The notes under the pieces are model-generated. The model had not been told where the DNA came from. It saw only the letters and a program-made list of their open reading frames with translations, and made no database searches. From assembly GCA_045576095.1 (NCBI GenBank), contig JAZNFP010000045.1:10391-74390 (forward strand): a stretch of 64,000 nt of DNA, read 5' to 3'. Both the position numbers and the translations under genes were made by a program. This DNA is from Eubacteriales bacterium. Its GTDB lineage: Bacteria; Bacillota; Clostridia; Oscillospirales; CAG-272. How positions within the stretch are numbered: position 1 is the first letter of the stretch; every line of letters begins with the position of its first letter. Shown in pieces: positions 3,793 through 60,682 of the stretch.

Positions 3793-4077
3793 ATGAAGAT
3801 GGTACCTTTGGCAGATCGCGTCGTCGTGAAGGCGATCGAGGCAGAGGAAACGACCAAGTCGGGGCTTATTCTTCCCGGCTCGGCACAGGAGAAGCCCCAG
3901 GTCATGGAGGTCGTTGCAATCGGTCCCGGCGGCATTGTTGACGGCAAAGAGGTCAAGATGACCGTTTCTGTCGGACAGAGAGTCATTACGAGCAAGTATT
4001 CGGGCACCGAGGTCAAGTGCGACGGCGTCGAGTATACGATCGTTCGCATTGGTGACATTCTCGCAATCGTTGAATAA
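3793..4077 (+). CDS. groES: Co-chaperonin GroES
   Basis: 94 aa, MKMVPLADRVVVKAIEAEETTKSGLILPGSAQEKPQ. GGAGG RBS upstream. Confidence 0.97.
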   Translation: MKMVPLADRVVVKAIEAEETTKSGLILPGSAQEKPQVMEVVAIGPGGIVDGKEVKMTVSVGQRVITSKYSGTEVKCDGVEYTIVRIGDILAIVE

Positions 4078-4084
4078 TAAGTGA

Positions 4085-5737
<1,653 letters not shown>

Positions 5738-5751
5738 GTCTGAACCCAATC

Positions 5752-8591: not shown

Positions 8592-11582
8592 TTAAACGGG
8601 AGTTTTTTCGGTCTCTCGCTCCGCAAGCGCACCGATCAGGCTGCGAAGGCGAATCTTAACGGCACCGAGATTCGTGATCTCGTCTATTTTGATTTGTGTA
8701 TAAAGCTTTCCGTGTCGCTCAAGGATGGAGGAAACCTCGTCGGTTGTGATCGCGTCGATACCGCAACCGAATGAAACGAGCTGCACGAGCTCAACGCCGT
8801 CGTTTTTGCCGACGAACTCTGCGGCGCGGTATAGCCTTGCATGATAGGTCCATTGATTGAGCACAGCAACACGCGGAACCTCGTATTCGGCTCCGATCGC
8901 ATCCTCCGAAAGTATCACGAAGCCAAGCGATGCGGCAAGTCGGTCGATCCCGTGCCCGATTTCGGGATCAATATGGTAGGGACGCCCCGCAAGAATCAAG
9001 GCTCTCCTGCCGCTTTCCCTTGCATAGCGAAGCGCCCTTTCACCGATCTCCCGCGTTTCCCGCATCCAACGCCCGTAGGCATCGACGCCGGTATCGACTG
9101 CTTGACGGATCATGCGATAGGAAAGATCTGGGAAATCGCTCTTCAGCGCACGCAACAGCCCCCGCGAGAGCTCCCCGGGGTCGTTGATGTTGAGATAGGG
9201 ATAGAGAAAGCGCACGTTCTCAATGCTATCCATATTGGAGTGCAGAAGCTCGGAATAATAGGCAACGACGGGGCAATTATAGTAGTTATCCGAGGCGTGT
9301 TCATTGATATTGTAGGAAAGCCCGGGATAGAAGATGCAGTCAACCTTTTTTTCAATCAGCTCCTCGATATGTCCGTGCATGAGCTTGGCGGGATAGCACG
9401 CTGTATCCGATGGGATGCTGTACTGCCCCTTCTGATACAGGCGCCTTGTCGAAAAGCCCGAGCAAACCACTTCAAATCCAAGGCTTCGAAAGATCGTCGA
9501 CCAAAGAGGAAGCAGCTCGTACATACCGAGTGCAAGCGGCAAACCGATTCGTCCCCGCGTGCCCTTTTCCTCGGCACAATTTTGCACCAGAGCCTCGATG
9601 CGATTCCGCTTCCATTCATGCAGATTGGTAATGACGTCGGTTTCTTCTCCCGTCTCCTTCCCCGCCCCCTTTTCGCAGCGGTTTCCCGAGATGAATCGCT
9701 CGCCGCCCGCAAAAATATTGACGGTCAGGTGGCAACGGTTTCCGCATCCCGCACAGACCGTCGCCTTCGACTCGTGGGAAAAGACGGCGAGCTCCTCGGG
9801 GGAGATCAACGTTGACGACTGATTTGCCGACACCTCGGCATAGATTGCCGCACCGTATGCCCCCATGAGTCCTGCGATAGAGGGGCGAACAACCTCCCGA
9901 CCAAGCTCAAGCTCAAAGCTTCTGAGCACGGCGTCGTTGTAGAAGGTTCCGCCCTGCACGACGATATGCCGTCCGAGCTCGTCTGCCGACGAGGCGCGTA
10001 TCACCTTATAGATTGCGTTTTTGACAACGCTCATCGAGAGCCCTGCCGAAATATCCGCAACGCTTGCGCCGTCCTTTTGTGCCTGCTTCACAGACGAATT
10101 CATAAAGACCGTGCATCGGCTTCCGAGGTTCACGGGAGCGGAGGCAAAAAGTCCGAGCCTTGAGAATTCGGCAATCTCATAGCCGAGCGCGCGGGCAAAG
10201 GTTTCGATAAAGGAGCCGCATCCCGAGGAGCAGGCCTCGTTGAGCATGATCGAATCAATCGAGCGATTCCGAATTTTAAAGCATTTGATGTCCTGACCGC
10301 CGATATCGAGAATGAAATCGACGTCCGGGCTAAAATGGCGCGCCGCGTGATAATGCGCAAGCGTTTCAACAAGCCCGAAATCCACCCTGAAGGCGTGCCG
10401 AATGAGATCCTCGCCGTAACCGGTTACAGCGCTTGCGCGAATCCGGATGCGATCGCCGCAGAGTCGGTAGATTTCCTTGAGCTGTTGCTTCACGATCTCG
10501 ACCGGTGTTCCGCGGTTGGAGTCGTAATACGTATAAAGAAGCTCGCGATTTTCGCTCATCAAAACGAGCTTGGTGGTCGTGCTTCCGCAGTCGATTCCAA
10601 GGTATGCATCTCCCGAGTAGCTTTCGGGATCAAGTGTCGGAACGCTCGCCTTGGCATGCCGACGAAGGAATCCCGCATACTCGTCCCGGTCCGAAAAGAG
10701 CGGCGGAAGTGCCGCAGTATTCGACACAGTGGTCTCTGCACCGCGAATGCGAGAAACAAGCTCCCGATAGGTAAAGGTGCTGTCCAGTGACATTGCATAG
10801 ATTGCCGCTCCGAGCGCAACCGAAACGCGACCGAACGAGGGGAACAAAGCGTTTTCCGGGGAGAGCTTTAAGGTTTTGATGAAGCGCTCGCGCAGTCCCA
10901 TGCAGAAGGATAGCGGTCCGCCGAGAAACATGACCTTCCCCCGAATACGACGGCCCTGGGCGAGTCCCGCAATCGTTTGATTCACCACCGCCTGATAAAT
11001 GCTGGCGGCGATGTCGGATTTCGCAGCCCCCTGATTGATCAGCGGCTGAATATCGGTCTTGGCAAATACGCCGCATCTTGAGGCGATCGGATAGATTCGC
11101 TCCGAAGAGAGACTCAGCTCGTCGAGCTCGTTGACCGTTACCCCGAGAAGCGTTGCCATCTGATCAATGAAGGCGCCGGTGCCGCCTGCACAGGAGCCGT
11201 TCATGCGCTCATCCATGCCGCCCTCAAAGAAAATGACCTTGGCATCCTCGCCGCCAAGCTCAATGACGGCAGAAGTATCGGGGGCAAGGCGCTTGACGGT
11301 CTCACCTGTTGCAAACACCTCCTGAACGAAGGGCAGCCCCGCTGCATTGGCAAGACCCAGACCGGCAGAACCGGAAACGGCAACACGAAGCGGTTTGCTC
11401 CCGACCACGTCCTCAAGGTCATCAAGCAGCTCAAGAGCCTTTTTCCGAACCATCGAAAGATGGCGCTCATAGCACTCAAAAAGAACCGTTCCGTTATCTA
11501 CGGCAACGATTTTAGCGGTCGTTGATCCAATGTCGATTCCGACCGAGATACAGTCGCCGGTATTTAGCTCGAACTTCTCCAT
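8592..11582 (-). CDS. Double BcrAD/BadFG-type ATPase (2-hydroxyacyl-CoA dehydratase activase-like) fused to a C-terminal DUF2229-like domain
   Basis: Two actin-fold ATPase modules (IGIDIGSTTAKIV and LGIDCGSTTTKLV). Each carries the cluster-bridging Cys motifs (SCAGGTGAF / SRCGVFA, and ACSSGCGSF / SRCTVFM). There is also a CAGCGNRC...GNRCEKG Cys cluster. ATG 11582 is preceded by GAAGGAG. Confidence 0.9.
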   Translation of the reverse strand: MEKFELNTGDCISVGIDIGSTTAKIVAVDNGTVLFECYERHLSMVRKKALELLDDLEDVVGSKPLRVAVSGSAGLGLANAAGLPFVQEVFATGETVKRLAPDTSAVIELGGEDAKVIFFEGGMDERMNGSCAGGTGAFIDQMATLLGVTVNELDELSLSSERIYPIASRCGVFAKTDIQPLINQGAAKSDIAASIYQAVVNQTIAGLAQGRRIRGKVMFLGGPLSFCMGLRERFIKTLKLSPENALFPSFGRVSVALGAAIYAMSLDSTFTYRELVSRIRGAETTVSNTAALPPLFSDRDEYAGFLRRHAKASVPTLDPESYSGDAYLGIDCGSTTTKLVLMSENRELLYTYYDSNRGTPVEIVKQQLKEIYRLCGDRIRIRASAVTGYGEDLIRHAFRVDFGLVETLAHYHAARHFSPDVDFILDIGGQDIKCFKIRNRSIDSIMLNEACSSGCGSFIETFARALGYEIAEFSRLGLFASAPVNLGSRCTVFMNSSVKQAQKDGASVADISAGLSMSVVKNAIYKVIRASSADELGRHIVVQGGTFYNDAVLRSFELELGREVVRPSIAGLMGAYGAAIYAEVSANQSSTLISPEELAVFSHESKATVCAGCGNRCHLTVNIFAGGERFISGNRCEKGAGKETGEETDVITNLHEWKRNRIEALVQNCAEEKGTRGRIGLPLALGMYELLPLWSTIFRSLGFEVVCSGFSTRRLYQKGQYSIPSDTACYPAKLMHGHIEELIEKKVDCIFYPGLSYNINEHASDNYYNCPVVAYYSELLHSNMDSIENVRFLYPYLNINDPGELSRGLLRALKSDFPDLSYRMIRQAVDTGVDAYGRWMRETREIGERALRYARESGRRALILAGRPYHIDPEIGHGIDRLAASLGFVILSEDAIGAEYEVPRVAVLNQWTYHARLYRAAEFVGKNDGVELVQLVSFGCGIDAITTDEVSSILERHGKLYTQIKIDEITNLGAVKIRLRSLIGALAERETEKTPV

Positions 11583-11657
11583 GCCATTGCTCCTTCTATG
11601 TGCAAAATACGTAGTCAAACCCTCAAAATGCCACAGCTTTTCATTTTATATCATATT

Positions 11658-14175: not shown

Positions 14176-15144
14176 TTACGAATCGCGTTTCTGGTAGAAG
14201 ACGAAGGCTGATGCGAAGGCTGCGAAGACTCCGACGATCAGCATGACCACAACGAAGTAGGTCCAGGACTGTGCCGTTGCGATGTTCTGGTTGGTACCGC
14301 CGCCATCGTAGATCGACTGAATCGTTAACATGACGACGTTTGTCTGTCTCGTAAAGGAGTCGATAATCGTATAAATCGCATTCACGAAGATCATCGGGCT
14401 GACCATCGGGAAGGTCACCTTCCAGAAGGTCTCCCAGGCGGAAGCACCGTCGATGCGGCTTGCCTCGTAGATGGCAGGGCTGACCGACTGAAGTCCCGCA
14501 AGGAAGATCAACATCTGAACGCCGGAGTAGTTGACGATATCGTAAATGCTGTTTACAAGATCAATGACGTAGGTGACAAGGCCGGTTCCTACCTTCATGT
14601 TCGAAAACAGCATCTGCACATCCATCATCGAGATGAAGGCATCGGCGCCGCCGGCAGGGCCGGTACCGTTATCGGTTCCGGCGGTACCCGAGAGGGTATC
14701 TGCAGCGTTGACAGCCTCCATCAGACCGGTCGAAATAATAACCGGAACGAAGAAGATTGCACGGAACGCAGCGCGGCCAAACATCTTCTGATTCAAAATG
14801 ACGGCAACGAACAATGAGAAGATAACGATTGCGGGAACCTCCCAGATCAGGTTGAGAACCCCCTCTCCGAGCGAGGTCAAAAAGGACTGGTTAAGGGCTG
14901 ACTTGAAGTGCGTGAGTCCCACGAACTTGGTCCAGTCGTAATAGGTAATACCGTCGGTCGATGCCTTACCGATCGTCGAAAAGCTGAATGCAATCGAGTC
15001 AATGACGATCGGAAGATAAAGGAGCGCCAGTCCAAGAACGAACGGAAGCACGAAAAACCAGCCTCGACGAGCCTTTCTTTCCGAAAGCGTCAGCTTACGG
15101 TTGCCCGGGAGAAACGATTTCAATTTTGAAAATTTATTTGACAT
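14176..15144 (-). CDS. Carbohydrate ABC transporter permease (MalF type), second pair
   Basis: EAA-type loop EASRIDGASAWETFWKVTFPMVSP. Has a long periplasmic-side Gly/Thr/Ala-rich loop. Confidence 0.9.
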   Translation of the reverse strand: MSNKFSKLKSFLPGNRKLTLSERKARRGWFFVLPFVLGLALLYLPIVIDSIAFSFSTIGKASTDGITYYDWTKFVGLTHFKSALNQSFLTSLGEGVLNLIWEVPAIVIFSLFVAVILNQKMFGRAAFRAIFFVPVIISTGLMEAVNAADTLSGTAGTDNGTGPAGGADAFISMMDVQMLFSNMKVGTGLVTYVIDLVNSIYDIVNYSGVQMLIFLAGLQSVSPAIYEASRIDGASAWETFWKVTFPMVSPMIFVNAIYTIIDSFTRQTNVVMLTIQSIYDGGGTNQNIATAQSWTYFVVVMLIVGVFAAFASAFVFYQKRDS

Positions 15145-15164
15145 ATTTCATCACTCTCCTTGGC

Positions 15165-18100
15165 TCATCTCGGATCAAGACGTACGAACTCGTACTTATC
15201 AAGCGTAAGCGACCGACCCTCAAGCTCAACCTTGACCTCAAAGATGCTGAAGTTCAAAATCAAGCGAACCTCGTCGCTTCCCTTCTTGTAGGTTACCATA
15301 ACAACCGATCCGTCATCAAGCGAGAAGTCGGTGTGCTTGTAGCTTGCATCGGTCGAAAGCGAGGTGGTGAAGTAGCTGAGCTTGGTCTTGTTGAGGTAAT
15401 CCTCTACCCCCGCCGTTGCAACCTCAATGTTACCCGAGGCGGTTTCGTTTGCAGCAATGAAGTCATCCAATCTACGACAGATCCTGTCGTATGCATCGGA
15501 AAGCACGGAGTCTGCTGCAAGAATGTCAGCTGCAAAGCTTACCGAGAAGCCGTTTGCAATATCCTCAAGAATAGCGGCGCGGTCAAAGGTGAGATAGAGC
15601 GCCTGCCCCTCTGTGAGAAGAACGTCGCCGTCGTCTACCAGCTTCTTGAGCGCCGTTCCGTCGGTCAGATCGGCGTCCGCAGCGCGAAGATCTGCGATCA
15701 TGCCTGCAACGTCAGCGTCAAGACCCTCGACGTAAGCGCCGTCAGCATCGGGACCACCGATGATCAGCGCGGCAAGCTCATCATAAACGAGCTGCTTTGC
15801 ATCATCGTCAGCGGCTGCGGCAATTGCCTTTCCTGCCCGAATCAGCTCACGGACGAGTGCGCCCTTCCGAACGAGAACCGCATCGTGCTGAGCGAGAAGC
15901 AGAGAGAAATACTCGTCCTCAAGCTTCTTCAGAGCTTCCTCGCGTTCGGCATCGGTAACCACGCGCTCGGCGACCAGGAACTGATGATCGTACAGCTGGT
16001 GGGTTTGCAGATCTCCGATGGCATCATCCAGAATGCCGTAGTAGCGGATGACGTCCTCTTTCCAGATGGAGTAGTTTGCGGAATAATGCTTACTGAGAAG
16101 GAAATCCTCCTTCATCAGATCAGTGTTGCGGTAGCAGAGCACGTAGTACATTGCTGAGCCGCTCTCGATTGCGCGCAGAAGCTCGTAATCGGGGTTACCG
16201 GTTTCGTTGAACGGGGCACCGGCGTACTCAACCGTACCGTGCATCACCATGCCGTAGAACGGAACGGTGCGGCTCGCACAGAAGTAGCGGCTGCTGTCAA
16301 CGGGAGCGTTCAGAAGATAATCGACGTACTTGAGTGCGTAAACGTTTCCTCCGGTGCTCAGGAGCTTCGAATACTTCGAGGAGATCGACTCAAGCGTGGA
16401 AACGAGGTAGTCCTTTGCCGTCTCGCGGTCAAAGCTGTTGTTCTCACTGAAGTTCGAGGTCAGATCCTCTGCCATGTAATCGAGCGAAAGTGCCGTAACG
16501 TTAAACTTCGAGAGCTTCTTGTTGAACTTGTTGAAGAGTCCCGTCAGCTGATCTGCCGATACGCAAAGCGAGAAGTAGGAGAAGAAGCCCTGATAGACGG
16601 TATCGTACATCTGCTTGGAAGCGTAGCGATTATCCATCGAGCGGACGGTCGTCTTCTTCTTGGAGATTCCGCCAAGTCCGCGATTCTGGTAATTGTACAT
16701 CAAGTCGACGCCGAGGATGATCTCAATACCGCTTGCGGCATTTTCCTCCGCATAGGAAAGCAGACGGTTCAGACCCTTCTTGCCGCCAACCTCCTTCATC
16801 AGCTTCAGCTTCTTCGGGTATTTTCCCTCGACGCCTCCGTTGTAGAAGCCAAGCAGACGGAACTTCACGTTGCCGATTCCCTGCTCCGCAAGCTCGGTGT
16901 GCATCGTCTCGACGTCGTCAAAGGTCGTCAGAGCAACGTCCACCTTAACCGGGAAGGTCAGAATCTTCTCCGTGGTCTTCAGCGTTCCGTAAGACTCGAT
17001 GAAGAGCGGGATGCGCGACTTCACGTCGGTATCCGTAAGCTCACTGAGCGTCTCGGTCACGTTGATCAAATAGTTCCTGTAGTAACGTGCCATCTCAACG
17101 TAGGACGCCGTATAGGTTGCAGGCGCACCCGAGGGAACCAGCGTCTGCAGCGTGGGATCGAGAAGCATCACGATCTTCGTGGTATAGTTGCCTACGTACT
17201 TGGTATCCGAGAAGATCGGAATGTTCGCCGCACCGGAAATCGAATAGGAGTCGGTGGGACGGGGCGTATAGGACTGATAGATCGTCAGATGTCTCGAAGA
17301 CTTACGAACACCCGCGGAAAGCGTTACGAGAGAATCGCCCTCGGTGATGATCGCAAAAAATCCGGTGGTGATGCCGGTATCGGCATCGGTATTGACTGCG
17401 CCGTACACGGGGAGACGAACCGTCTGCGTTTTCTTGCCCTCAATGGTGCTGTACGCATAATCGTAGCCGTAAACAGGCTGCTTGATAACGGTCGTGGTAA
17501 CGTCCTCGTTGTTGATCAGAGCACCGCTTCCGTCGGGGAAGAACAGATAGCCCTCTTCGTTTTTGTCGTTTGCGGCAAAGTAGCGCAGGATCGAGAGCCC
17601 GTCAAGACGGTACTTCGACTCGTCAAAGGAAATGCTGCTTGCGGGAAGCGAGTAGGTCATTCCCTCATCGTCGAGCAGGTACTCAATCGCGCAACGGAAG
17701 ACGGGACGCGGCTTCTCGGCGTACTTAAAGCCAACTTTTGCCTCCTGCTTGAGCATATCATCGACGGTATAGCCGGTGTTGACCGAGGTCAGAATGTTCT
17801 GAAGCTCGATCTTCTTGTTGGTTGGGATTCCGGACTCCAGCGTCCAGATGACGGGCTTCAGTCCGGTTACGGGATCCACGTCGTCAAGAACGGGATAAAG
17901 CTTGAGAAGGTCCTCCGTCACCTCGGTCTTGTTCGGATCAAACTGCTTGTAACGTCCGGTCAGCGTCTCGTAATCGGTCAGAATCCCTACGATCCACTTA
18001 CGGAAAACGATATCCGACGGAAGCTCAAGCGCATGCTCGTCGATCACGCCGGCCTGCTTGAGGTCAAGCAGCATCTCATCATAAAGCTCCCGGTCGCCTG

Positions 18101-18914
18101 CGATTGCCTTTTTGTAGGCGTTTTTGTATGCAGTGGAGAAGGTACTCGACGCAATCGAGAACACCCCTGTCCAGTATTTTCCAAAGGCGGTTACATCACC
18201 GATCTCGCCATCGTACTGGCATTTTCTGTATGCGCCGGTGCTGCTTCCGATAATCGAGTCGAAATCGGTCGTCAGATTCTCGAACACGTCAAGGATCGAC
18301 TGCTGCATCGGGATGACGATGGTTTCAAGATAATCCTCATGCAGAATCGCCTCGGGAAGTGCGTAACGCGATACGGTATCACCGAGAACGTACTCAACGC
18401 GGATACCGGTTCTGCGGACACCGCTATCATCGAGCTTGGATATCTTGGAAATCAAGATCTGTCCCTTCTGTGCCGCCAGCTTAAAGCTGTTCTCATCAAC
18501 GTACGAGGTACCCGAGAGAATGTCGGTATAGCTGATCCAGACCTGCGAGAGCATATCGCTCATCCAATCTTCGGAGGGCTTGCCGTTGGCGCTCGGCTTT
18601 GCGACATCAACGGGATTGGTGGTCAGATACTGCCCTGTATAAAGGTTCTTAAGATAAACCTCGCCGGTATACTTGTTTGCGTACAGAGCGAACTGATCGT
18701 TCTGCGCGTAGAGGTAGGTATACCCGAGAGCAATCTCATCCTGCACCTTTTCCTCCGCGGTCAGGAAGGTTGCTTCAAAGGCGTGCTTGGTAGCCGCCTC
18801 GTAAATCAGCTGATCGCCGTCGCCTGAGGACGATGCACCCGCGGGGATCGCAACGATGCAGGAGGTCAGTACCGTCAGCACCGCAAGCATAAAAGCAATG
18901 ATTTTGTTTTTCAT
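15165..18914 (-). CDS. 1249-aa secreted or lipid-anchored protein of unknown function (possibly DUF5696-like; sandwich plus barrel-like pattern)
   Basis: N-terminal signal peptide with a possible lipobox LTSC. Segments such as YLFFPDGSGALI, KFRLLGFYNGGVEGKYP, IEIILGVDLMYNY, LSLDYMAEDL and VPFYGMVMHGTVEY suggest alternating beta/alpha units. Ala/Asp-rich helical C-terminal region. Confidence 0.85.
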   Translation of the reverse strand: MKNKIIAFMLAVLTVLTSCIVAIPAGASSSGDGDQLIYEAATKHAFEATFLTAEEKVQDEIALGYTYLYAQNDQFALYANKYTGEVYLKNLYTGQYLTTNPVDVAKPSANGKPSEDWMSDMLSQVWISYTDILSGTSYVDENSFKLAAQKGQILISKISKLDDSGVRRTGIRVEYVLGDTVSRYALPEAILHEDYLETIVIPMQQSILDVFENLTTDFDSIIGSSTGAYRKCQYDGEIGDVTAFGKYWTGVFSIASSTFSTAYKNAYKKAIAGDRELYDEMLLDLKQAGVIDEHALELPSDIVFRKWIVGILTDYETLTGRYKQFDPNKTEVTEDLLKLYPVLDDVDPVTGLKPVIWTLESGIPTNKKIELQNILTSVNTGYTVDDMLKQEAKVGFKYAEKPRPVFRCAIEYLLDDEGMTYSLPASSISFDESKYRLDGLSILRYFAANDKNEEGYLFFPDGSGALINNEDVTTTVIKQPVYGYDYAYSTIEGKKTQTVRLPVYGAVNTDADTGITTGFFAIITEGDSLVTLSAGVRKSSRHLTIYQSYTPRPTDSYSISGAANIPIFSDTKYVGNYTTKIVMLLDPTLQTLVPSGAPATYTASYVEMARYYRNYLINVTETLSELTDTDVKSRIPLFIESYGTLKTTEKILTFPVKVDVALTTFDDVETMHTELAEQGIGNVKFRLLGFYNGGVEGKYPKKLKLMKEVGGKKGLNRLLSYAEENAASGIEIILGVDLMYNYQNRGLGGISKKKTTVRSMDNRYASKQMYDTVYQGFFSYFSLCVSADQLTGLFNKFNKKLSKFNVTALSLDYMAEDLTSNFSENNSFDRETAKDYLVSTLESISSKYSKLLSTGGNVYALKYVDYLLNAPVDSSRYFCASRTVPFYGMVMHGTVEYAGAPFNETGNPDYELLRAIESGSAMYYVLCYRNTDLMKEDFLLSKHYSANYSIWKEDVIRYYGILDDAIGDLQTHQLYDHQFLVAERVVTDAEREEALKKLEDEYFSLLLAQHDAVLVRKGALVRELIRAGKAIAAAADDDAKQLVYDELAALIIGGPDADGAYVEGLDADVAGMIADLRAADADLTDGTALKKLVDDGDVLLTEGQALYLTFDRAAILEDIANGFSVSFAADILAADSVLSDAYDRICRRLDDFIAANETASGNIEVATAGVEDYLNKTKLSYFTTSLSTDASYKHTDFSLDDGSVVMVTYKKGSDEVRLILNFSIFEVKVELEGRSLTLDKYEFVRLDPR

Positions 18915-18930
18915 TTGTTCACCCCGTTCG

Positions 18931-21201
18931 TTATGTCCGATAACTGATTTCCGTCACAATCGACGAAATAAACTGTACCATCTTAGCAATCAGGCTGGAG
19001 AAGAGGATCGTCACGAACATGATTACGCAGATACAAATGATCGTTCCTAAGGTTGTGATGACGTTTTTGTTGAGCGAATAGTCGTGGGTAACGAGCATGC
19101 CGAAGAATACGAGGAATGCGACCCAGATCCATCCGAAAACGACGATCATCGTTGCGATCGAGCCCTCATCCTTGGTCATGAAGTTCTGCATGAGCGTCGA
19201 AACGACAAGCAGCGCCGGCATGGGAGCCAAGGAATAGCCAACGGCAATGAAGACATCCTTGAAGGAGCCCTCGCCGTCAAACAGCGTCGTCAAGCACCAG
19301 TTCGCGGTCGTCCAAAGAATGACGGGAACGAGAATCGAAACGATCTGAATCAGAATGCTCGAGCCGTCCTCATACGGATCGAAGATATATCCGCGACCGA
19401 CCGACTGGTAGTAGAAGGCCAGAATCGTAAGCGCAACGTAGGTCATCGCCGCACGAACCGATCCTCTGTGCTCATGCTTGATATCCCAGAAGCCGTCGAA
19501 GGGATGGAAGATCAGATGGAAGGCATATACGAGCTCCTCCCAATAGGTCTTTTTACCGACCTTGAGCGCCACGCGCGTGTTAAACTTCTTTGCCTTGCCC
19601 AAAATTTTAATGACCGCAACCAAAACGGCGATTACACCGAGGACAAGAAAAACAAAGTACTTCGAGATCCATTTGGTACGAAGCTGTGCGTAGGCATCCG
19701 AGTAGTAGGTCGTCTCGTGCGCTGCCTTGAAGTACTCCATCGCACGCTCGTAATCCTCTTCGGTCTTTGCGTTTCGATAAATCGCTTTACCGATACCGAT
19801 ATAAGCAGAGTCGAAGTTGTTATTGCGCTGCAGGATCTCGGTCCAGATGAGCTCTGCCTGATCGTAGAGGTTTCTGTTTTCCTGTGCAAGCGCCTCAATG
19901 AGAAGATCTCCGTAGCTCGTGCGCTCAAAGACCGTAAAGGAGTTGGCGTTGTAATCAAGGAGCAGAAGTCTGCTTCCCTGATAGGTAACGGCACGGACGG
20001 TCTTCAGGGTTCCGAGCGTGGTTCCTCCGTCGCCGAAGGCATGCAGCAGAACGCCGTCGGAGTTGTAGGTGTAAACGCGGCTTCTCTTCGAGTCGATGAT
20101 CGACCAAGAGCCCTCGGGACCGACGGCAATATCGGCAATCGAGGAAACTCCGCCGACCGTCGCTCCGGTCGTGGCGTCTACGGTCAAGCTGCCGAGCGTC
20201 ACCGCAACCTCGCCGCCGCAATCGAAGAAGCCGTTGCGGTTCATGATCTCCTTACCGCCGGAGTTGAGCTTCTTCACGGGAGAGTACGAGGAGCTCTTGG
20301 AGGTAATCGACTTTCTCTGGTTCTCAAGGTCGGCAGCATCGGTAAAGATGATCGTACCGTAAATGAAGCCTTTGTCGTCAACCGTAATGTTGTTGTAGGT
20401 CGTAGGGACGAACTGCTTGGAGCTGGCTCTGTCCTCTGCCGACTTAAAGCGACGCCAGAAAATCTCAAACACGCTTGCCGAAACCTTCTGAGCACCGATA
20501 AATCCGGTGAACTCACCGTTATCGCTTGCGAGAACGATAATACCCTCGTTACAGGTCGATGCAACGATATACACACGGCCGTACTTATCAACAGCGCAGG
20601 CCTTCGGGGTATACGCACCCTCGGCAAGAAGCGCCGTCTCGGGTCTCTCGATGATCTTGTGGAAGGAGCAATCGGAGCGGTTGAAGATCACGATACGGCT
20701 GTTTCCCGAGTCACATACGTAGATATAATCCTTGTAGATGAACAAGCCCTGGGGAGTCTTCAGTCTATCGTAATCGGCGGTCGTGCTCGGGAAGAAATCA
20801 ATTGCATTCTTGAACTTATACGCATAGTCAAGAACGATAACGCGGTTGTTGTCGGTATCGGAGATGTATACGTTGCCGTCCGAATCGGTGGCAATGTCAC
20901 CGGGATGCAGAAGCGTGGCGGAAAACGCCTTCTCCGCCTCTGCAGCCGGATTGGCAAAACCGGTTCCTTCAAAATAGCGGGTTGCACGCTCGATATACGC
21001 ATCCTTATACCGGTCAAGCTTCATGTAGCTTCCGTCAACGACGGGAGAAATCGGCGAATATGCCGCAGGGGAAAACAAGATGTCGCCCTGGCTCGAATAG
21101 ATGTAGGTGTCGTAGGATTCGCTTGCACTGACCGGAACCGTTCCGAAAAGGAGAATGGCAAGGCACGCGAATGCCAGAATACTGAGTAGCTTTTTATTCA
21201 T
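18931..21201 (-). CDS. NHL-repeat beta-propeller / TPR-like / Yip1-domain fusion membrane protein
   Basis: Signal peptide. About six NHL-like blades (GNVYISDTDNNRVIVLD, YIYVCDSGNSRIVIFN, GRVYIVAST, SRVYTYNSDG, ...). A helical TPR-like segment, one TM helix, then HPFDGFWDIKHEHRGS plus five TM helices typical of bacterial Yip1 family proteins. ATG 21201 has better RBS spacing than 21207. Confidence 0.85.
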   Translation of the reverse strand: MNKKLLSILAFACLAILLFGTVPVSASESYDTYIYSSQGDILFSPAAYSPISPVVDGSYMKLDRYKDAYIERATRYFEGTGFANPAAEAEKAFSATLLHPGDIATDSDGNVYISDTDNNRVIVLDYAYKFKNAIDFFPSTTADYDRLKTPQGLFIYKDYIYVCDSGNSRIVIFNRSDCSFHKIIERPETALLAEGAYTPKACAVDKYGRVYIVASTCNEGIIVLASDNGEFTGFIGAQKVSASVFEIFWRRFKSAEDRASSKQFVPTTYNNITVDDKGFIYGTIIFTDAADLENQRKSITSKSSSYSPVKKLNSGGKEIMNRNGFFDCGGEVAVTLGSLTVDATTGATVGGVSSIADIAVGPEGSWSIIDSKRSRVYTYNSDGVLLHAFGDGGTTLGTLKTVRAVTYQGSRLLLLDYNANSFTVFERTSYGDLLIEALAQENRNLYDQAELIWTEILQRNNNFDSAYIGIGKAIYRNAKTEEDYERAMEYFKAAHETTYYSDAYAQLRTKWISKYFVFLVLGVIAVLVAVIKILGKAKKFNTRVALKVGKKTYWEELVYAFHLIFHPFDGFWDIKHEHRGSVRAAMTYVALTILAFYYQSVGRGYIFDPYEDGSSILIQIVSILVPVILWTTANWCLTTLFDGEGSFKDVFIAVGYSLAPMPALLVVSTLMQNFMTKDEGSIATMIVVFGWIWVAFLVFFGMLVTHDYSLNKNVITTLGTIICICVIMFVTILFSSLIAKMVQFISSIVTEISYRT

Positions 21202-21219
21202 CTTCATTCTCTCCTTTCG

Positions 21220-22092
21220 TTAATCCTTCATTCCGCTTGCGCCCATCGTCTCAATAATCTTACTCTGGCTGATGACAAAGACGATGATCGGAACCGCCAT
21301 CATAACGACGACCGCTGCAGCACCTGCACCCGAACGGGCGATACCGCCGGCGACGATCTGCTGGATCGCGTAGTTAAATGTCTTGAGCTGCTCGGAATGA
21401 ATGTAAATTGAGGCACCCATGTTCCACAGGTTCTTAAAGCTCTCGATGATCAGCGTCAGCCACGCGGGCTTAACCATCGGCATGGCGATTACCCAGAAGG
21501 TTCGAAGCTCGCTGGCGCCGTCAAGACGCGCGCTCTCCAGAACCGTATCGGGAACCGAGGACTCCATAAACTGCTTCATCAGGTAAAGACCGAGAGTTGA
21601 CGCCATCGCGGGAACGATGACCGAAAGATAGGTATCAACCCAGTGGAAGGCACTGAGCAGGATGAAGTGCGTCACCTGGTTAACCGTCGAATGGAACATC
21701 AGGGACATGACGATGACCTGGAACATCCAGTTACGGCCCGGGAACTTCAGCTTGGCAAGCGCATAGGCTGCCATTGAGCCGAGGAACAGGTTTCCTGCGG
21801 TACCCGATGCGGTGATAAACACCGTATTGAAGATGTAACGCGAGAACGGAACCCAGGAGTCGGTCATCAGCGTAAAGAGATCGGAGTAGTTGGCAAGCGT
21901 GGGTCTGCGAGGAAGGAAGCGAGGCGGGAACATGAACAGCTCGTCAAGAGGCTTGAGCGACTGACCGATCGCATAAAGCATCGGCAGGAACATGAACGCA
22001 CCCATCAGCGTCAAAACGAGGGTAATACCGGCGTCTCCTCCGGCAGAACGGTTCAGGACAACTTTATGACCACGTGTTCTAAGTTTTTTCAT
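21220..22092 (-). CDS. Carbohydrate ABC transporter permease (MalG type), first pair
   Basis: EAA-type loop ESARLDGASELRTFWVIAMPMVKP. Six TM helices. Confidence 0.9.
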   Translation of the reverse strand: MKKLRTRGHKVVLNRSAGGDAGITLVLTLMGAFMFLPMLYAIGQSLKPLDELFMFPPRFLPRRPTLANYSDLFTLMTDSWVPFSRYIFNTVFITASGTAGNLFLGSMAAYALAKLKFPGRNWMFQVIVMSLMFHSTVNQVTHFILLSAFHWVDTYLSVIVPAMASTLGLYLMKQFMESSVPDTVLESARLDGASELRTFWVIAMPMVKPAWLTLIIESFKNLWNMGASIYIHSEQLKTFNYAIQQIVAGGIARSGAGAAAVVVMMAVPIIVFVISQSKIIETMGASGMKD

Positions 22093-22093
22093 A

Positions 22094-23176
22094 TCACTGT
22101 CCCACCTTCGAAAGAGCTTTCTTGATAACCATATTACAAGTAATCATGATAACGAAGAGAATGACGGCGATCGCCGAAGCGTAACCGACCTCATATCTCT
22201 GTCCGCCGTAGTCATCCAGGTGATGCATGATCGTATGTGCCGCGTAGTTGACCGAGGGCATTCCGCAAAGCGCGGTAACGATTGCACCGAAGCCGAAGGA
22301 CTGCGTGATCGAAAGAACGGCACCGAACATCAGCTGAGGACGCATGGTCGGGAGCGTGATGAACCACAGCTCCTGCCAACGGTTCTTGATTCCGTCAACG
22401 GCTGCTGCCTCGTAAAGGCTGCGGTCAACCGTCTGAAGTCCTGCGATAAAGGACAGGAACGCGGTACCGAGCGAGGTCCAAAGAGCGACGACGATACAAA
22501 GGGGCATAACCCAGTCGGCATCCTTGAAGAACAGAATCGGCTCGCTGATGAAATCAAATTCGATCAAAAATGCGTTTGCCCAGCCATAGTAGTCGGACGA
22601 GAAGAAGGTCTGCCATACCATGTAGACCGAGCCCGAAATCGAGGGGGCATAGAAGATCAGCGTTACGAGAGCACGAAGCTTCGGGGGCAGCTCATTGATG
22701 AACCATGCAATGAGCAACGCCATGATGTAGGAAACGGGGCCTGTGATCGAGGCAAAGATCAGGGTATTCTTCGCGGCGATCAGGAAAATCTCGTCGTTAA
22801 GCAGCAAACGAGAGAAGTTGTCAAATCCAACGAGGTGCGGGAACTGAAGCATGTTGAAGTCGGTCAAGCTCAGAACCATCGACAGGATAACGGGAAGCAC
22901 GGTGAAGATGAAGAACAGAATCATAAAGGGGGCGACCATGAAATACGCAACCTTATTCTTCTTCATCTCGTTCCAGATCCACTGCCGACGCGTCATTTCC
23001 GCGCGGGATACCGGACTCGATGCATTGTTTCCGTTTTGTGAACCGCTCGTCTTTTTCCGAGTCACGAGCGACTTGGTCTTCCCGGCCACGGAAAGGGCAC
23101 CGGATTTGCATTTGGTGCCGATTCCCTTAAGCCCGGACACAAGACGCGCGCCAAAGGATTCATTGCCTTGTGACAT
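22094..23176 (-). CDS. Carbohydrate ABC transporter permease (MalF type) with an N-terminal cytoplasmic extension, first pair
   Basis: EAA-type loop EAAAVDGIKNRWQELWFITLPTMRP. ATG 23176 lies 10 nt after GGAGA. The ORF-track start at 23200 is TTG. Confidence 0.9.
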   Translation of the reverse strand: MSQGNESFGARLVSGLKGIGTKCKSGALSVAGKTKSLVTRKKTSGSQNGNNASSPVSRAEMTRRQWIWNEMKKNKVAYFMVAPFMILFFIFTVLPVILSMVLSLTDFNMLQFPHLVGFDNFSRLLLNDEIFLIAAKNTLIFASITGPVSYIMALLIAWFINELPPKLRALVTLIFYAPSISGSVYMVWQTFFSSDYYGWANAFLIEFDFISEPILFFKDADWVMPLCIVVALWTSLGTAFLSFIAGLQTVDRSLYEAAAVDGIKNRWQELWFITLPTMRPQLMFGAVLSITQSFGFGAIVTALCGMPSVNYAAHTIMHHLDDYGGQRYEVGYASAIAVILFVIMITCNMVIKKALSKVGQ

Positions 23177-23218: not shown

Positions 23219-26200
23219 TTAGTTGCTCGCTTCGGGAGAGGTCGTCGTCTCGGGGGCGCCGGTCGACATGCCGAACTCCTTACGCTTTCTCGTAATCTCA
23301 TCGTTGATTGCGTTGAGATAACCGGTCAAGGCGTCAACCGGATTCGCACCCTCGTTCTTCACGTCAAGGAATGCAAAGTCGGTGTAGCGGGCAATGATAT
23401 AGCTTCCGGGGTAGTTCACAATTGCGGAAAGGTGGTTGAGCTGATCCTGGATCGCAGCGTTCTCCTTGGTGGTCCAGGAAAGCTTCTCGATTGCACCGAG
23501 GTTTGCCGCCGCATACTTTGCGGAGGGACCGATCAGGGCAACCATGCGGTTACCGTACTCAGCCTCGACGTCTGCGCTCGTCTGCCACTTCATGAAGTTC
23601 CAGGCTGCGTCGGGATCCTTACAGCCGTGGAGCATAACGGTTGCGGTGATGGTTGCGATCGAGTTGTAATTCTTGACTCTGCCGTCGTCTCCCGCAACGC
23701 CGGGGATCGAGGAGAAGCTCCACAGACCCTTGATTTCGGTTGCAAAGACGGTCAGCGTATTATAAACGGTAATGTAATCGGAGATAACGAGAGGCATCTC
23801 ACCGGTACGGAAGCGGTTTGCGGGATCAAAGCTGACCGGGAAGCCGTAATCGGTGTAAAGGCTCGTGCAGAAGCGGAATGCCTCGAGAGCCTCGTTGGTT
23901 CCGAGACCGATCTGCGAGCCTGCGTACTCGGGATTATCCTCGTACAGCCACATGCTACCGCCATTTTGATAAAGGAAGAAATCGAGTGCGAGTGTGTAGT
24001 TAACACCGATCTCAAGGTAGTTGCTCTGGAAGATCGGGAGCAACGCAAGCACCTCGTCCCATGTGGTCGGGACGGCAACACCGAGCTCTGCGAGGACGTC
24101 GAGACGGTAGAACATCATCGGGAAGTTCATCGTCAGGGGAAGTCCGTAGGTCTTATTCTGAAGCGTCAGGGTGTTCATCGCGGCCTTGTGATAGATATCG
24201 TCCTCGGTTCCCGAGACGCCGTCGGCGCCGTATGCCGCTACGGCAAAGTCGTCAAAGTAGGAGATATCGTTGATTGCGCCGCGGATTGCATAGTTGATGA
24301 CCGAGGCACTGTCAAGTCCGAGATAAACGTCGGGGCCCTTCCCTGCCAGAACCGAAGGAAGCAAGGTCGATGCAACGACGAGCTTCAGCGAAACAGGTCC
24401 GGAGTTGTCGAGCTTGGAATAATCGCCGTCGATCAGCGAGCGCCAGATCTTCGACTGGTCACGGCCCAGAGCGAGCCAAACGTTCAGGGCAGAATCACCG
24501 AGCGACTCCTTGTCGGTCACGCCCATGTTGTCGTAATCGGTGACAAAGCTCATGAAGAACGCCTTGATCTGATAGCCGAGCGTCTGGAAGAAGTTTGCGT
24601 TTGCCTTCGGCGCCTTTGCCTCGGGAGACTGGATCGAGAGGAAGTCGATGGTCATGATCGAGGCCTTAGAGTTGTTGACCCAGGTACCGAGCGTACCGAG
24701 GTAGGACTTGAGGGTTGCGAGATTCTTTGCGATCTCGGATTCGCTGCCGCCCATCTTGGTCAGAAGATCGGAAACCGTCTTGAGCGTTGCGATATGCGAG
24801 CCGGTCGTTCCGCAGAGCTCCTCGAATCTTGCGGCAACCTCGGCAAGAGCAATCGCTTCATTATTAAAATGCCAGATTACGTTCGGCATATTGGTGGAGA
24901 AATGATAGTCGCGGTACTCGTCGGGATCTGCGCCCGTCAGCTTGATGATATCAAGATAGGCGTCGTTGATGGTCTTGAGCGAATCCTCCACGCGCTTGAT
25001 CAGATCGCCAAGCGAGCCGAGGCCAACCTCAATGTAAATGCGGTACTCAACGTCTTTATCAAAATAGAAGAGGAACTTGTCTTCGCCATCACCGAGGGGC
25101 TTGCTCTGCCAGTCCTTGTGATAATCGAAGCGAGCATTATAGGCAGCCTCGAAGGGAACGAGCGGCGTTCCGTCGTCAAGACCGTAAACGACACCGGCAT
25201 CCGCATCGCGGTTAGAGGACCACAGGCGAACGGTGCGACAGACATACATTCCCTGCAGCGAGGTCTGATGATACCGGAGATCAATATTGTAGAAGCCCGA
25301 CTTCTCAACCTTGAAGCTGTAAGCCGCCCACTGTCCGACCGTATCGAAGCTGGTTGCACCGATGACGTTGAAAAGCTGTGCAGCCGCCGACGTCGGAGAG
25401 GTGATTGCCGAGGTCGAATCGTTGCCCATGTAAACCGAGGTGTCGGAGACGAGAATCGGCTTCTCTGCCTGCACCTTGATTTTGGGTGTATCCTTCTTCG
25501 GAACCGCAGCAGCACCGTAATCTCTTACCATGTTAGCGATATACTCTGCGTAAGAAGGAGCGGTATAGGTGCCGTCGTTCGAGGGAAGAAGCGTAATCGA
25601 GCCGACAATGCAAGCCTCGCGGGATGCCTCGAGGGTAATCGTATGCTCACCCTCGGTCAGGAAGAATTTGAAATACCCCTCGGTATATCCGGTAGAATCG
25701 TTGCAAACGTAGGTTCTCCAATCCTGAACTGCTACGATCTCGGGCTGAAGGTCGTTGCCGTTGAGATCCTTTTCAAAGATGGGATTGCCCTCGTCGTCCA
25801 GCGGATAATCGTACTTCCACAGCTTCGAAAGACGGATATAGCTCGCCTCAGAGAAGGGAATGGCATCGTCAATGTAAAGCTTGCGCTCGATACCGTTAAC
25901 GGTTCCCTTAAGCGTGTAATACTCGATCGCGATGTAATAGAGGCCGTCGGACGGCGCCTCCACCTTAAAGGTTACCGATCCGGAGTTCGGAAGATATACC
26001 GAGCTTTCCGCACGGTCACCCATATTCGGCCAAGACCGGTAATCCTGGCAGAAGGCGCTGTTGATGACGAGCGCCGTATCCTCCGGATTGGTCGAGGTAA
26101 AATCGGTAAGATCAACCTCGAAAGAACCGGTGCCGTGAGGCTTGCTCTCCCAGCGCTTTTCATAAACCGAATACGAGGAGGCGTCCAAATAGGACTTCAT

Positions 26201-26365
26201 CTCATTCGGATCCTCAAAAAACTTGTTGTCAGCTACGGAATTGCCGCTTCCAGAGCTGCCGGCACCGGATGACGCGTCTGCCGACACGGTCATACCTCCG
26301 ACGCCAAAGCAGACAACGAGGGCAAGAATCAAAGCAACAAGCCGTGTGAATTTGCTCTTTTTCAT
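23219..26365 (-). CDS. Giant (~1048 aa) extracellular solute-binding protein: ~600-aa N-terminal extension plus a C-terminal family-1 SBP domain
   Basis: Signal/anchor peptide MKKSKFTRLVALILALVVCFGVGG followed by a Ser/Gly linker. The C-terminal half has SBP_bac_1-like landmarks (GKGPDVYLG, TYGLPLTMNFPMMFYR, VPTTWDEVLALL, RFRTGEMPL). The N-terminal half holds two similar beta-sandwich-like segments (FKVEAPSDGLYYIAIEYY and FKVEKSGFYNIDLRYH). Confidence 0.9.
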   Translation of the reverse strand: MKKSKFTRLVALILALVVCFGVGGMTVSADASSGAGSSGSGNSVADNKFFEDPNEMKSYLDASSYSVYEKRWESKPHGTGSFEVDLTDFTSTNPEDTALVINSAFCQDYRSWPNMGDRAESSVYLPNSGSVTFKVEAPSDGLYYIAIEYYTLKGTVNGIERKLYIDDAIPFSEASYIRLSKLWKYDYPLDDEGNPIFEKDLNGNDLQPEIVAVQDWRTYVCNDSTGYTEGYFKFFLTEGEHTITLEASREACIVGSITLLPSNDGTYTAPSYAEYIANMVRDYGAAAVPKKDTPKIKVQAEKPILVSDTSVYMGNDSTSAITSPTSAAAQLFNVIGATSFDTVGQWAAYSFKVEKSGFYNIDLRYHQTSLQGMYVCRTVRLWSSNRDADAGVVYGLDDGTPLVPFEAAYNARFDYHKDWQSKPLGDGEDKFLFYFDKDVEYRIYIEVGLGSLGDLIKRVEDSLKTINDAYLDIIKLTGADPDEYRDYHFSTNMPNVIWHFNNEAIALAEVAARFEELCGTTGSHIATLKTVSDLLTKMGGSESEIAKNLATLKSYLGTLGTWVNNSKASIMTIDFLSIQSPEAKAPKANANFFQTLGYQIKAFFMSFVTDYDNMGVTDKESLGDSALNVWLALGRDQSKIWRSLIDGDYSKLDNSGPVSLKLVVASTLLPSVLAGKGPDVYLGLDSASVINYAIRGAINDISYFDDFAVAAYGADGVSGTEDDIYHKAAMNTLTLQNKTYGLPLTMNFPMMFYRLDVLAELGVAVPTTWDEVLALLPIFQSNYLEIGVNYTLALDFFLYQNGGSMWLYEDNPEYAGSQIGLGTNEALEAFRFCTSLYTDYGFPVSFDPANRFRTGEMPLVISDYITVYNTLTVFATEIKGLWSFSSIPGVAGDDGRVKNYNSIATITATVMLHGCKDPDAAWNFMKWQTSADVEAEYGNRMVALIGPSAKYAAANLGAIEKLSWTTKENAAIQDQLNHLSAIVNYPGSYIIARYTDFAFLDVKNEGANPVDALTGYLNAINDEITRKRKEFGMSTGAPETTTSPEASN

Positions 26366-26434
26366 ACCTATACGTTCCTCCATTGGTATCTCAAAATCCA
26401 GAACAGGGCATCATGCACAGCTATGGATATTAAA

Positions 26435-26463
26435 ATCATACCACATTGCTCCCTGATTGTCAA
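26435..26463 (-). promoter_or_regulatory. Near-consensus SigA promoter of the seven-gene operon
   Basis: On the minus strand: TTGACA (26463-26458), 17-bp spacer, TGgTATGAT (-10 at 26440-26435). AT-rich A-tract region upstream (26470-26760). Confidence 0.6.
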
Positions 26464-59493: not shown

Positions 59494-59503
59494 GACGTTC
59501 TCC

Positions 59504-60508: not shown

Positions 60509-60682
60509 AGCTCCCCTTCCTTTGTTCCGACTTTTTTCCAATTTCTATTATATCAAAACAAAAGAGAAAAGTAAAGGGCTGAGATTTTAGATTTCTCTTC
60601 CTTTTTTTAAAAAAGTATGCTATAATAACCGTGGTAATTTTGAAGATATGCCCGAAAAAGCGGTTCGGGCGAAAGGAAGCTT

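Follow-up and report, generated by a model that had tools for sequence, protein, structure and literature searches.

We analyzed a 64,000-nucleotide stretch of contig JAZNFP010000045.1 (positions 10,391 to 74,390 of the forward strand) from the assembly GCA_045576095.1 of an Eubacteriales bacterium; this whole stretch is called the window below. One of its genes encodes a protein of 1249 amino acids (aa) that belongs to the family DUF5696 (PF18952). The gene is the fifth in a cassette of seven, and the other six code for a giant solute-binding protein (SBP), two pairs of ATP-binding cassette (ABC) permeases, and a membrane protein with NHL, TPR and Yip1 parts. The DUF5696 protein may process glycans outside the cell, probably by alpha-retaining chemistry, as a subunit of a conserved import machine, and would then be a candidate for a new glycoside hydrolase (GH) family; we put the probability of this reading at about 0.5. 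The evidence for it was computed here and comprises the predicted fold, remote homology, the conservation of residues, and the conservation of the cassette.

Family and fold of the DUF5696 protein

The open reading frame (ORF) is a real gene and not a chance one, as is seen from its match to the PF18952 model (424.5 bits against a cut-off of 25.6, E = 9.5e-127) and from homologues with identities from 72-77% down to 22%. The match joins residues 387-982 of the protein to positions 4-578 of the 612 positions of the model. A first-pass annotation, made from the sequence alone, had described this ORF (15165..18914, 1249 aa), quoted several of its segments and named the family DUF5696, and it was right in all three respects. 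The quoted segments are YLFFPDGSGALI (residues 456-467), KFRLLGFYNGGVEGKYP (684-700), IEIILGVDLMYNY (730-742), LSLDYMAEDL (809-818) and VPFYGMVMHGTVEY (884-897). All signatures of the family that we derived (the PDGSG loop, YGxD, PVxG, GGN, PFxGMVxHG and IExG) are present, and the residues that make them up are 94-100% conserved in 246 sequences.

There are 103 homologues at E <= 1e-5, with alignment identities from 77% down to 19%. PF18952 is the only family found on each of them, and all are unnamed or labelled “hypothetical”. Relatives are encoded in at least 577 stretches of species-representative genomes. The best 80 of these loci, with a top identity of 72%, come nearly all from metagenome-assembled genomes of gut or rumen Clostridia, including Oscillospiraceae, Eubacteriales, “Ruminococcus” and Flemingibacterium. 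A profile search of 1.84 billion cluster representatives (50% identity) returned 6,663 of them at E <= 1e-3 and 3,955 at E <= 1e-30. The shortest family members have about 700 aa and the longest more than 2,500. The protein had been called an orphan; the 6,663 clusters contradict this, and we reject the label for a family with thousands of members.

No characterized family was found at the level of sequence families in Pfam, NCBIfam or PDB sequences, a match that the first-pass annotation had named as a possible refutation of its proposal. No NCBIfam model matches the protein. A direct comparison with PDB sequences gave no match, and phmmer against GH129 gave E = 0.62. Pfam has no match to PF12905 (Glyco_hydro_101) or to PF01055 (Glyco_hydro_31) in the protein, and the GH31 signature with its nucleophile motif was not seen. 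Ten family members searched against Pfam at relaxed E-values (E <= 5) showed no match to GH129, GH101 or GH31. Among the papers searched, none names the family.

The fold was predicted with AlphaFold2 for residues 50-1249, with an alignment of 103 sequences as input. Confidence is high throughout: the mean predicted local distance difference test (pLDDT) score is 94.3, the predicted template-modelling (TM) score is 0.84, and no residue is below 50. In the model, a (beta/alpha)8 barrel stands between an N-terminal and a C-terminal beta-sandwich, and large helical inserts are present. The N-terminal sandwich (~66-191 and ~405-585) is split by a helical insert (~192-394) and is followed by a linker helix (605-619) and the barrel (~637-975). 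An Ala/Asp-rich helical region at ~988-1156 (helices ~988-1052 and ~1067-1156) and a terminal beta module (~1163-1245) complete the chain. The helical inserts correspond to the columns of lowest occupancy in the family alignment. This layout agrees with the alternation of strands and helices, the Ala/Asp-rich region and the terminal beta module that had been noticed in the sequence.

A Foldseek search of the PDB with this model places GH129 first. The best match is NagBb, the GH129 alpha-N-acetylgalactosaminidase of Bifidobacterium bifidum (5wzp; E = 1.6e-19, TM score on the target 0.63, 13-14% identity), and the second is the GH129-like DagB, also called ZgGH129 (5opq, E = 8.3e-19). GH101 follows with E about 1e-9 and TM 0.22-0.28, then the GH31 enzymes YicI and MYORG with E from 4e-8 to 3e-7 and TM scores on the target of 0.36-0.44; GH36, GH97 and GH13 are weaker still. 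The first-pass annotation had compared the layout with GH31 or with other TIM-barrel glycosidases. The sandwich-plus-barrel glycosidase fold is indeed there, but the nearest structures are those of GH129 and GH101 and not of GH31.

Profile comparisons agree with the structural ranking. When the family profile was compared with PDB sequences, GH129 alone matched (E about 1e-3). The matched pieces are collinear and comprise the N-terminus, the DYVxMAKxY helix, the beta1-alpha1-beta2 unit and the C-terminal sandwich. An hhalign comparison with GH129 gave a probability of 97% and E = 1.2e-10 over 358 columns. For these alignments the NagBb sequence was recovered from a printed PDB alignment, and a second GH129 sequence was stitched across frameshifts from a metagenome contig (L084). 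Fragments of the latter gene have weak precomputed matches to PF18952 and PF12905.

The GH129 gene on this contig (L084:2066-3962) is an observation in its own right. Its product is NagBb-like, with 59% identity, and it is called as three ORFs through two frameshifts.

On the profile and model evidence, DUF5696 is best described as a distant branch of the GH129/GH101 lineage and as a member of neither family, because identity is only 13-14% and a match to a family-level hidden Markov model is absent. The likeness of the protein to GH129 is one of superfamily level only. The model also points to a more remote relationship with the sandwich-plus-barrel enzymes of GH31, GH36, GH97 and GH13. DUF5696 is not categorically new, since it is already catalogued as a domain of unknown function and shares its fold class with known glycosidases. 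It is an uncharacterized and very large family with a catalytic constellation unlike that of GH129 and GH101.

The protein had been described as secreted or as a lipoprotein, and an N-terminal Sec signal sequence (MKNKIIAFMLAVLTVLTSCIVAIPAGA-SSS) is present. The LTSC motif at residues 16-19 is a weak lipobox candidate, which fits [LVI][ASTVI][GAS]C loosely, and among the homologues only the four closest (P0002-P0005) share its Cys. The remaining homologues have Ala-X-Ala sites of signal peptidase I, e.g., ...VPAAAA-EE and ...LPVSA-AE. Because the lipobox Cys is not conserved and the other homologues have such sites, cleavage by signal peptidase I appears more likely for this protein than lipidation. 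We consider the lipoprotein half of the description probably wrong, the Cys being confined to these four sequences.

Two ORFs on the opposite strand, 15126-16157 (+; 343 aa) and 16239-18827 (+; 862 aa), overlie the DUF5696 gene, and the neighbouring cassette genes are likewise overlain by antisense ORFs. We considered these two ORFs as genes and rejected them; they appear to be antisense artefacts. Such ORFs are probably a by-product of base composition and codon usage in a window with a GC content of 54.7%.

The seven-gene cassette across genomes

The seven cassette genes lie on the reverse strand with gaps of 1-20 nucleotides. A single operon here encodes two permease pairs of MalF/MalG type and one binding protein. 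No gene for an ABC ATPase was found in the cassette or among the window ORFs scanned against Pfam. Carbohydrate-active enzymes (CAZymes) other than the DUF5696 protein were not found in the operon or in the scanned ORFs of the 64-kb window either; the first-pass annotation had raised the possibility that the protein is the only degradative enzyme of the locus.

The giant SBP matches SBP_bac_8 at residues 672-951 (E = 1.5e-14). Residues 1-650 contain weak matches to CBM_35 (E = 0.03) and PPC and two stretches that look like beta-sandwiches; this N-terminal extension of about 650 aa suggests that the protein may also grip polymers. The AlphaFold2 model of the NHL-Yip1 protein (pLDDT 81.8) has a six-bladed NHL propeller, TPR-like helices, a long helix and a multi-helix Yip1 domain. 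Foldseek matched it to generic NHL propellers only (E about 1e-13) and gave no catalytic hint. The NHL-Yip1 protein has more than 2,488 homologues, and in comparable relatives its identity is 48-55% against 33-45% for DUF5696.

To describe the cassette in other genomes, the seven window proteins (as eight query parts) were compared by tblastn with 80 genome loci and 3 metagenome loci. In all loci with enough flanking sequence (68 of 68), all eight query parts were present, and neither the set of genes nor their order and orientation changed: giant SBP, permeases A1/B1, NHL-Yip1, DUF5696, permeases A2/B2. The order is also kept around DUF5696 homologues with only 22-27% identity. No member of DUF5696 was seen outside the cassette among 90 loci. 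We regard this constant setting as the strongest of the new results. The first-pass annotation had implicitly treated the protein as a free-standing degradative enzyme; this is contradicted by its obligate place in a cassette of seven genes and two transporters.

Median identities to the window proteins in the 68 loci fall from the first permease pair (B1 72%, A1 69%) through the Yip1 part (56%) and the second pair (A2 54%, B2 52%) to the NHL part (43%), the SBP (40%) and DUF5696 (36%). The fast evolution of DUF5696 and of the SBP fits their presumed role as exposed, substrate-facing parts.

The surroundings of the cassette vary, and in distant lineages they are glycan loci of different kinds. 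L001 has a LacI gene and a cassette with a 27% identical DUF5696 protein; directly after this cassette (14193-22310) come a pair of GH144-like genes (PF10091), one gene resembling GH35/42, and GH3 and GH94 genes, and the GH94 protein is a beta-1,2-oligoglucan phosphorylase of the SOGP type. Such a set of genes is typical of beta-1,2-glucan use. The cassette of L088 has BNR_2, DHDPS, PfkB, SIS, GH127 and GDSL genes around it. L089 has AraC, an FAD oxidoreductase with an F5/8C domain, an extra SBP and GH16, and L090 has GH3, two CBM96, GDSL and two GH43.

Variants of the cassette itself were seen in two loci. In L003, NHL and Yip1 are encoded as separate genes. In L090, two proteins of 433-434 aa without a Pfam match (L090:4879-7669) replace the giant SBP and A1/B1; these SBP-like proteins show a weak likeness to 6rjy, which binds arabino-oligosaccharides (E = 0.0014 and 0.12). 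Because this variant lacks the giant SBP and A1/B1, the minimal core appears to consist of NHL/Yip1, DUF5696, one permease pair and one or more binding proteins. A literature search on sets of NHL, Yip1, ABC-transporter and solute-binding proteins found no description of the seven-gene cassette in the papers searched.

Candidate pocket and possible roles

Residue conservation was counted in 246 family sequences. Outside the barrel, D461 of the PDGSG loop is conserved in 244 of them, D485 in 237 and D555 in 238, and the end strands of the C-terminal sandwich hold the conserved Y1209 and N1221. The conserved residues of the barrel are E640 on beta-1 (224 sequences, and Asp in 8 more), N692, D737 on beta-3 (216, with 17 Glu and 12 Asn), D817, S820 and N821 in the beta-4 loop, R830 (241), the Gly-Gly-Asn that ends with N857 on beta-5, D865, D873 and S875 (240) on beta-6, H892 on beta-7 (236), N903 (243) and E917 (242). 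The same residue is found in at least 96% of the sequences at D461, D485, D555, N857, N903 and E917, and E640 is acidic in 94%; this is the outcome of the search for invariant Asp and Glu that had been proposed as a check. Since they are placed where the barrel strands end on the C-terminal side, the conserved residues would be expected to cluster.

The numbering of NagBb was anchored on Trp398 (from a review) and Asp435 (PMC5698469). In the alignments, D737 of the window protein corresponds to D367 of NagBb, R830 to R454/455 and H892 to H520. The first-pass annotation could not name a nucleophile or an acid/base by eye. By homology, D817 is a candidate nucleophile: it matches the position of the GH129 nucleophile (D435 of NagBb, D486 of DagB), with a loop alignment that is possibly four residues off. 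For the acid/base the earlier statement stands, the Glu of GH129 being absent.

Position 821, which is Asn in the window protein, is Asp in 185 of the 246 sequences, and 236 of them (96%) have a carboxylate at 817 or 821. The pattern is complementary: in the first 103 sequences, the pair 817/821 is D/N in 34, D/D in 18 and x/D in about 40. In the clade of the window protein (32 sequences), D817, D865 and D873 are invariant.

DagB shares only the nucleophile Asp with NagBb and has a different acid/base, and its active site is lined by residues of the N-terminal domain, including the essential Asp202 (PMC5698469). DagB also lacks an acid/base Glu at the position of E478 in NagBb. In the hhalign alignment, the LPVYG of the window protein is placed on the MPWF of NagBb. 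By this inference from sequence, PDGSG and YGxD would lie just upstream of the strand aligned to “MPWF” of NagBb and “MPWW” of DagB, in the same part of the N-domain. On balance, the data favour a working sugar-processing pocket with its acid/base elsewhere than in GH129, which falls short of proof of catalysis.

From these data we infer catalysis, its stereochemistry, a glycan substrate and a physical association with the transporter. The protein would be exported via Sec. The giant SBP would capture a glycan through its modules that resemble carbohydrate-binding modules (CBMs), and the helical inserts of DUF5696, the NHL-TPR-Yip1 protein, or both would hold DUF5696 at the membrane. The glycan would be cleaved or trimmed in a pocket to which the barrel contributes its C-terminal face and the N-domain its PDGSG/YGxD loop, and the products would enter the cell via the two CUT1-type permease pairs, driven by an ATPase encoded elsewhere. 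Alpha-retaining chemistry is the most likely one because the structural relatives are all enzymes that act on alpha-glycosidic bonds, with retention in nearly every case. The nucleophile would be D817. As acid/base, D873 or D865 of the beta-6 loop could serve, as in GH31, or else D461 or D485 of the N-domain (compare Asp202 of DagB). A relocated acid/base is conceivable because DagB shares only the nucleophile with NagBb (PMC5698469).

Several observations weigh against this reading. E478/E479 of NagBb, of which we take Glu478 to be the acid/base, align to G856/N857, and N857 is Asn in 245 of the 246 sequences, so that an invariant Asn stands at the acid/base site. Position 817 is Asp in only 125 sequences and Glu in 8, and about 4% of the family have a carboxylate at neither 817 nor 821. 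H320 and D322 of NagBb, altered in the quadruple mutant 5wzq, correspond to R686 and L688. The residues altered there (H320, D322, H366 and another His) are presumably metal ligands; F736/D737 of the window protein align beside H366/D367. The stacking platform Trp398 of NagBb is not conserved. In the gut clade, the genes around the cassette are housekeeping genes (iscS/nifU/mnmA upstream, rpoBC or S20 downstream), which give no hint of a substrate. Finally, the pocket residues are constant although the CAZymes encoded nearby differ widely from locus to locus (sets for beta-1,2-glucan, sets of arabinoxylan type, and others). Such constancy would be surprising in a glycosidase with a single linkage specificity and would agree with a generic role that is possibly non-catalytic.

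The main alternative, which we hold to be less likely, is that the protein is a pseudo-glycosidase, i.e., that the GH129-like fold with a ligand pocket was recruited as a non-catalytic structural, receptor or gating subunit of the transporter. In this role it might dock glycans or the giant SBP onto the permeases or stabilize the permeases. The GH13-like heavy chains rBAT and 4F2hc of heteromeric amino-acid transporters offer an analogy. The Asn at the acid/base site, the variable nucleophile position and the sameness of the pocket beside very different CAZyme sets all speak for it. So does the obligate co-occurrence of the gene with membrane partners; moreover, the strictly invariant residues are largely structural (P460, G462, G464, P502, G505), and the large helical inserts look suited to protein-protein contacts. 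However, a carboxylate at 817/821 is kept in 96% of members in a complementary D/N pattern, and six more near-invariant carboxylates together with H892, R830, N857 and N903 resemble a working site rather than a decayed one. Relocation of the acid/base is, besides, documented in the nearest characterized relatives. The first-pass annotation had suggested a new hydrolase or lyase family. The search results agree with this in that no characterized sequence family of glycoside hydrolases, polysaccharide lyases or carbohydrate esterases was matched.

It is unlikely that the protein is catalytic without being a hydrolase, e.g., a transglycosylase, a phosphorylase-like enzyme or a lyase-type enzyme, for which no Glu acid/base at the GH129 position would be needed. 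Families with retaining folds do include lyases and transglycosylases, such as the GH31 alpha-glucan lyases and the GH13/GH70 transferases, and a missing canonical acid/base together with a retained carboxylate in the nucleophile region is what such an enzyme could show. Positive evidence for it is lacking, phosphorolysis would hardly be useful at an extracellular site, and an operon centred on an importer fits the release of importable products better.

We regard it as very improbable that DUF5696 replaces an SBP for the permease pair A2/B2. The idea draws on the order “binder-permease-permease”, which would then occur twice: in the window and in the gut clade there is one SBP per two permease pairs, and DUF5696 stands immediately upstream of A2/B2. 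L090 contradicts it with DUF5696 and an A2/B2-type pair next to two SBP-like proteins of ordinary size, and on this evidence we reject it. L001 and L089 carry an extra ordinary SBP beside the cassette, and the DUF5696 fold shares nothing with SBPs. The least probable of all is a free-standing secreted or lipidated glycosidase that is in a transporter operon by chance: the signal peptide, the lack of a membrane anchor after cleavage and the possible lipobox LTSC would suit it, but its cassette position is invariant in all loci examined, down to 22-27% identity, and the lipobox Cys is not conserved.

A broader view, which we hold only tentatively, is that the seven genes encode an undescribed Gram-positive surface machine that captures, processes and imports large glycans, with a GH129-like protein as an integral part of an ABC importer. 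This protein would be either a new GH family with a relocated catalytic apparatus or a co-opted non-catalytic subunit. In the former case, a carboxylate at 817/821 would act with an Asp of the N-domain, and the former acid/base site would be occupied by Asn.

A catalytic DUF5696 would be a candidate for a new GH family of the GH129/GH101 lineage, one whose active site is laid out unusually. A non-catalytic one would exemplify, in bacteria, the recruitment of a glycosidase fold to serve in a transporter. Either way, the strictly conserved cassette suggests a way of acquiring carbohydrates that is unstudied and apparently important in gut Firmicutes, which are abundant and mostly uncultured, and it gives clear targets for expression, mutagenesis and the modelling of complexes.

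Window features and known systems

The features of the cassette are collected in Table 1. The promoter-like sequence listed there is to be read together with the fact that promoter-type sites in the region are no more numerous than in shuffled sequences. The window genes that flank the cassette are housekeeping genes.

Table 1. Coordinates of the cassette genes and of parts of the DUF5696 protein in the window
Feature	Position	Strand	Basis and remarks
Promoter-like TTGACA-17-TATGAT, extended -10 TG	26435..26463	-	11/12 matches, consensus only; ~50 nt upstream of gene 1
Gene 1, giant solute-binding protein, 1054 aa, signal peptide	23219..26383	-	C-terminal SBP_bac_8/SBP_bac_1
Gene 2, ABC permease A1, MalF/UgpA-like, 368 aa	22094..23200	-	BPD_transp_1, UgpA-like
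Gene 3, ABC permease B1, MalG/UgpE-like, 290 aa	21220..22092	-	Pfam, NCBIfam
Gene 4, NHL-TPR-Yip1 membrane protein, 758 aa, signal/transmembrane segment	18931..21207	-	Yip1 E = 1e-16, NHL E = 5e-10
Gene 5, DUF5696 protein, 1249 aa	15165..18914 (stop codon included)	-	ORF, Pfam, homologues, model
Signal peptide, residues 1-27, MKNKIIAFMLAVLTVLTSCIVAIPAGA-SSS (MKNK...PAGA-SSS)	18834..18914	-	Sequence; cleavage site inferred
N-terminal beta-sandwich part 1, residues ~50-190	18345..18767	-	DSSP of model; aligns to ZgGH129 19-64
Helical insertion in N-domain, residues ~191-400	17715..18344	-	Column occupancy 0.39-0.56; variable or absent in short members
N-terminal beta-sandwich part 2, residues ~401-590	17145..17714	-	Invariant PDGSG loop, Y482, D485, P502, G505, D555
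Invariant PDGSG loop, residues 460-464	17523-17537	-	
(beta/alpha)8 barrel, residues ~591-978	15981..17144	-	Model and alignment
D817 codon, candidate nucleophile, aligns with NagBb D435	16464..16466	-	hhalign
N857 codon, near-invariant Gly-Gly-Asn, at GH129 acid/base Glu site (NagBb E478/E479)	16344..16346	-	hhalign
C-terminal beta-sandwich, Ig-like as in GH129, helix-interrupted	15168..15980	-	Model; aligns to ZgGH129 C-terminus
Gene 6, ABC permease A2, 322 aa, EAA-type coupling motif YEASRIDGASAWETFWKVTFP	14176..15144	-	Pfam, NCBIfam; motif read from sequence
Gene 7, ABC permease B2, 351 aa	13105..14160	-	Pfam, NCBIfam

Other genes of the window were noticed in passing. Downstream of the cassette, after a GNAT gene, there is a gene (8592-11618, -) for a 1008-aa fusion of two BcrAD/BadFG ATPase modules with DUF2229, of the CoA-enzyme activase type. 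Two ORFs overlap on opposite strands, 4013-5749 (-; 578 aa, no Pfam match) and 4088-5737 (+; 549 aa). A gene for an Mrr-type restriction endonuclease (42918-44081, -) lies amid translation genes. A gene for UDP-galactopyranose mutase (Glf) stands beside one for a WYL/WCX regulator (58378-59577, - and 59504-60541, -), and the two ORFs overlap by about 70 nucleotides.

Among the systems known to us, NagBb (5WZN/5WZP) is the best structural match and has the same order of domains. The window protein differs from it by about 600 extra residues of helical inserts; it is also exported, and its gene is part of a transporter cassette. NagBb, as we take it, is a stand-alone intracellular enzyme. DagB aligns collinearly with the window protein in the N-terminus, the DYV(D/G)MAK(V/A)Y helix and the C-terminal sandwich, at 9-12% identity. 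It is a dimeric exo-enzyme of a Bacteroidetes polysaccharide utilization locus for carrageenan, without the helical inserts and without an ABC cassette.

The GH101 endo-alpha-N-acetylgalactosaminidases (EngBF 2ZXQ, SpGH101 5A55) share the barrel and sandwich fold with the window protein. They are cell-wall-anchored enzymes of mucin O-glycans with other accessory domains, and the match to them is far weaker than to GH129. The GH31 enzymes YicI and MYORG have the same architecture and match more weakly than GH129 or GH101. The logic of the GH31 pocket (Asp on beta-3, Asp on beta-4, Arg, Asp on beta-6, His on beta-7) is similar to that of the window protein.

A functional analogy is provided by Gram-positive CUT1 loci and by the Sus-like “utilisomes” of Bacteroidetes, in which a surface glycan binder and a protein with a glycosidase fold are combined with a transporter. 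The system described here differs from both in being a fixed unit of two permease pairs, a giant SBP with CBM-like modules, NHL-Yip1 and DUF5696, and in that the cassette is often located away from any other CAZyme.

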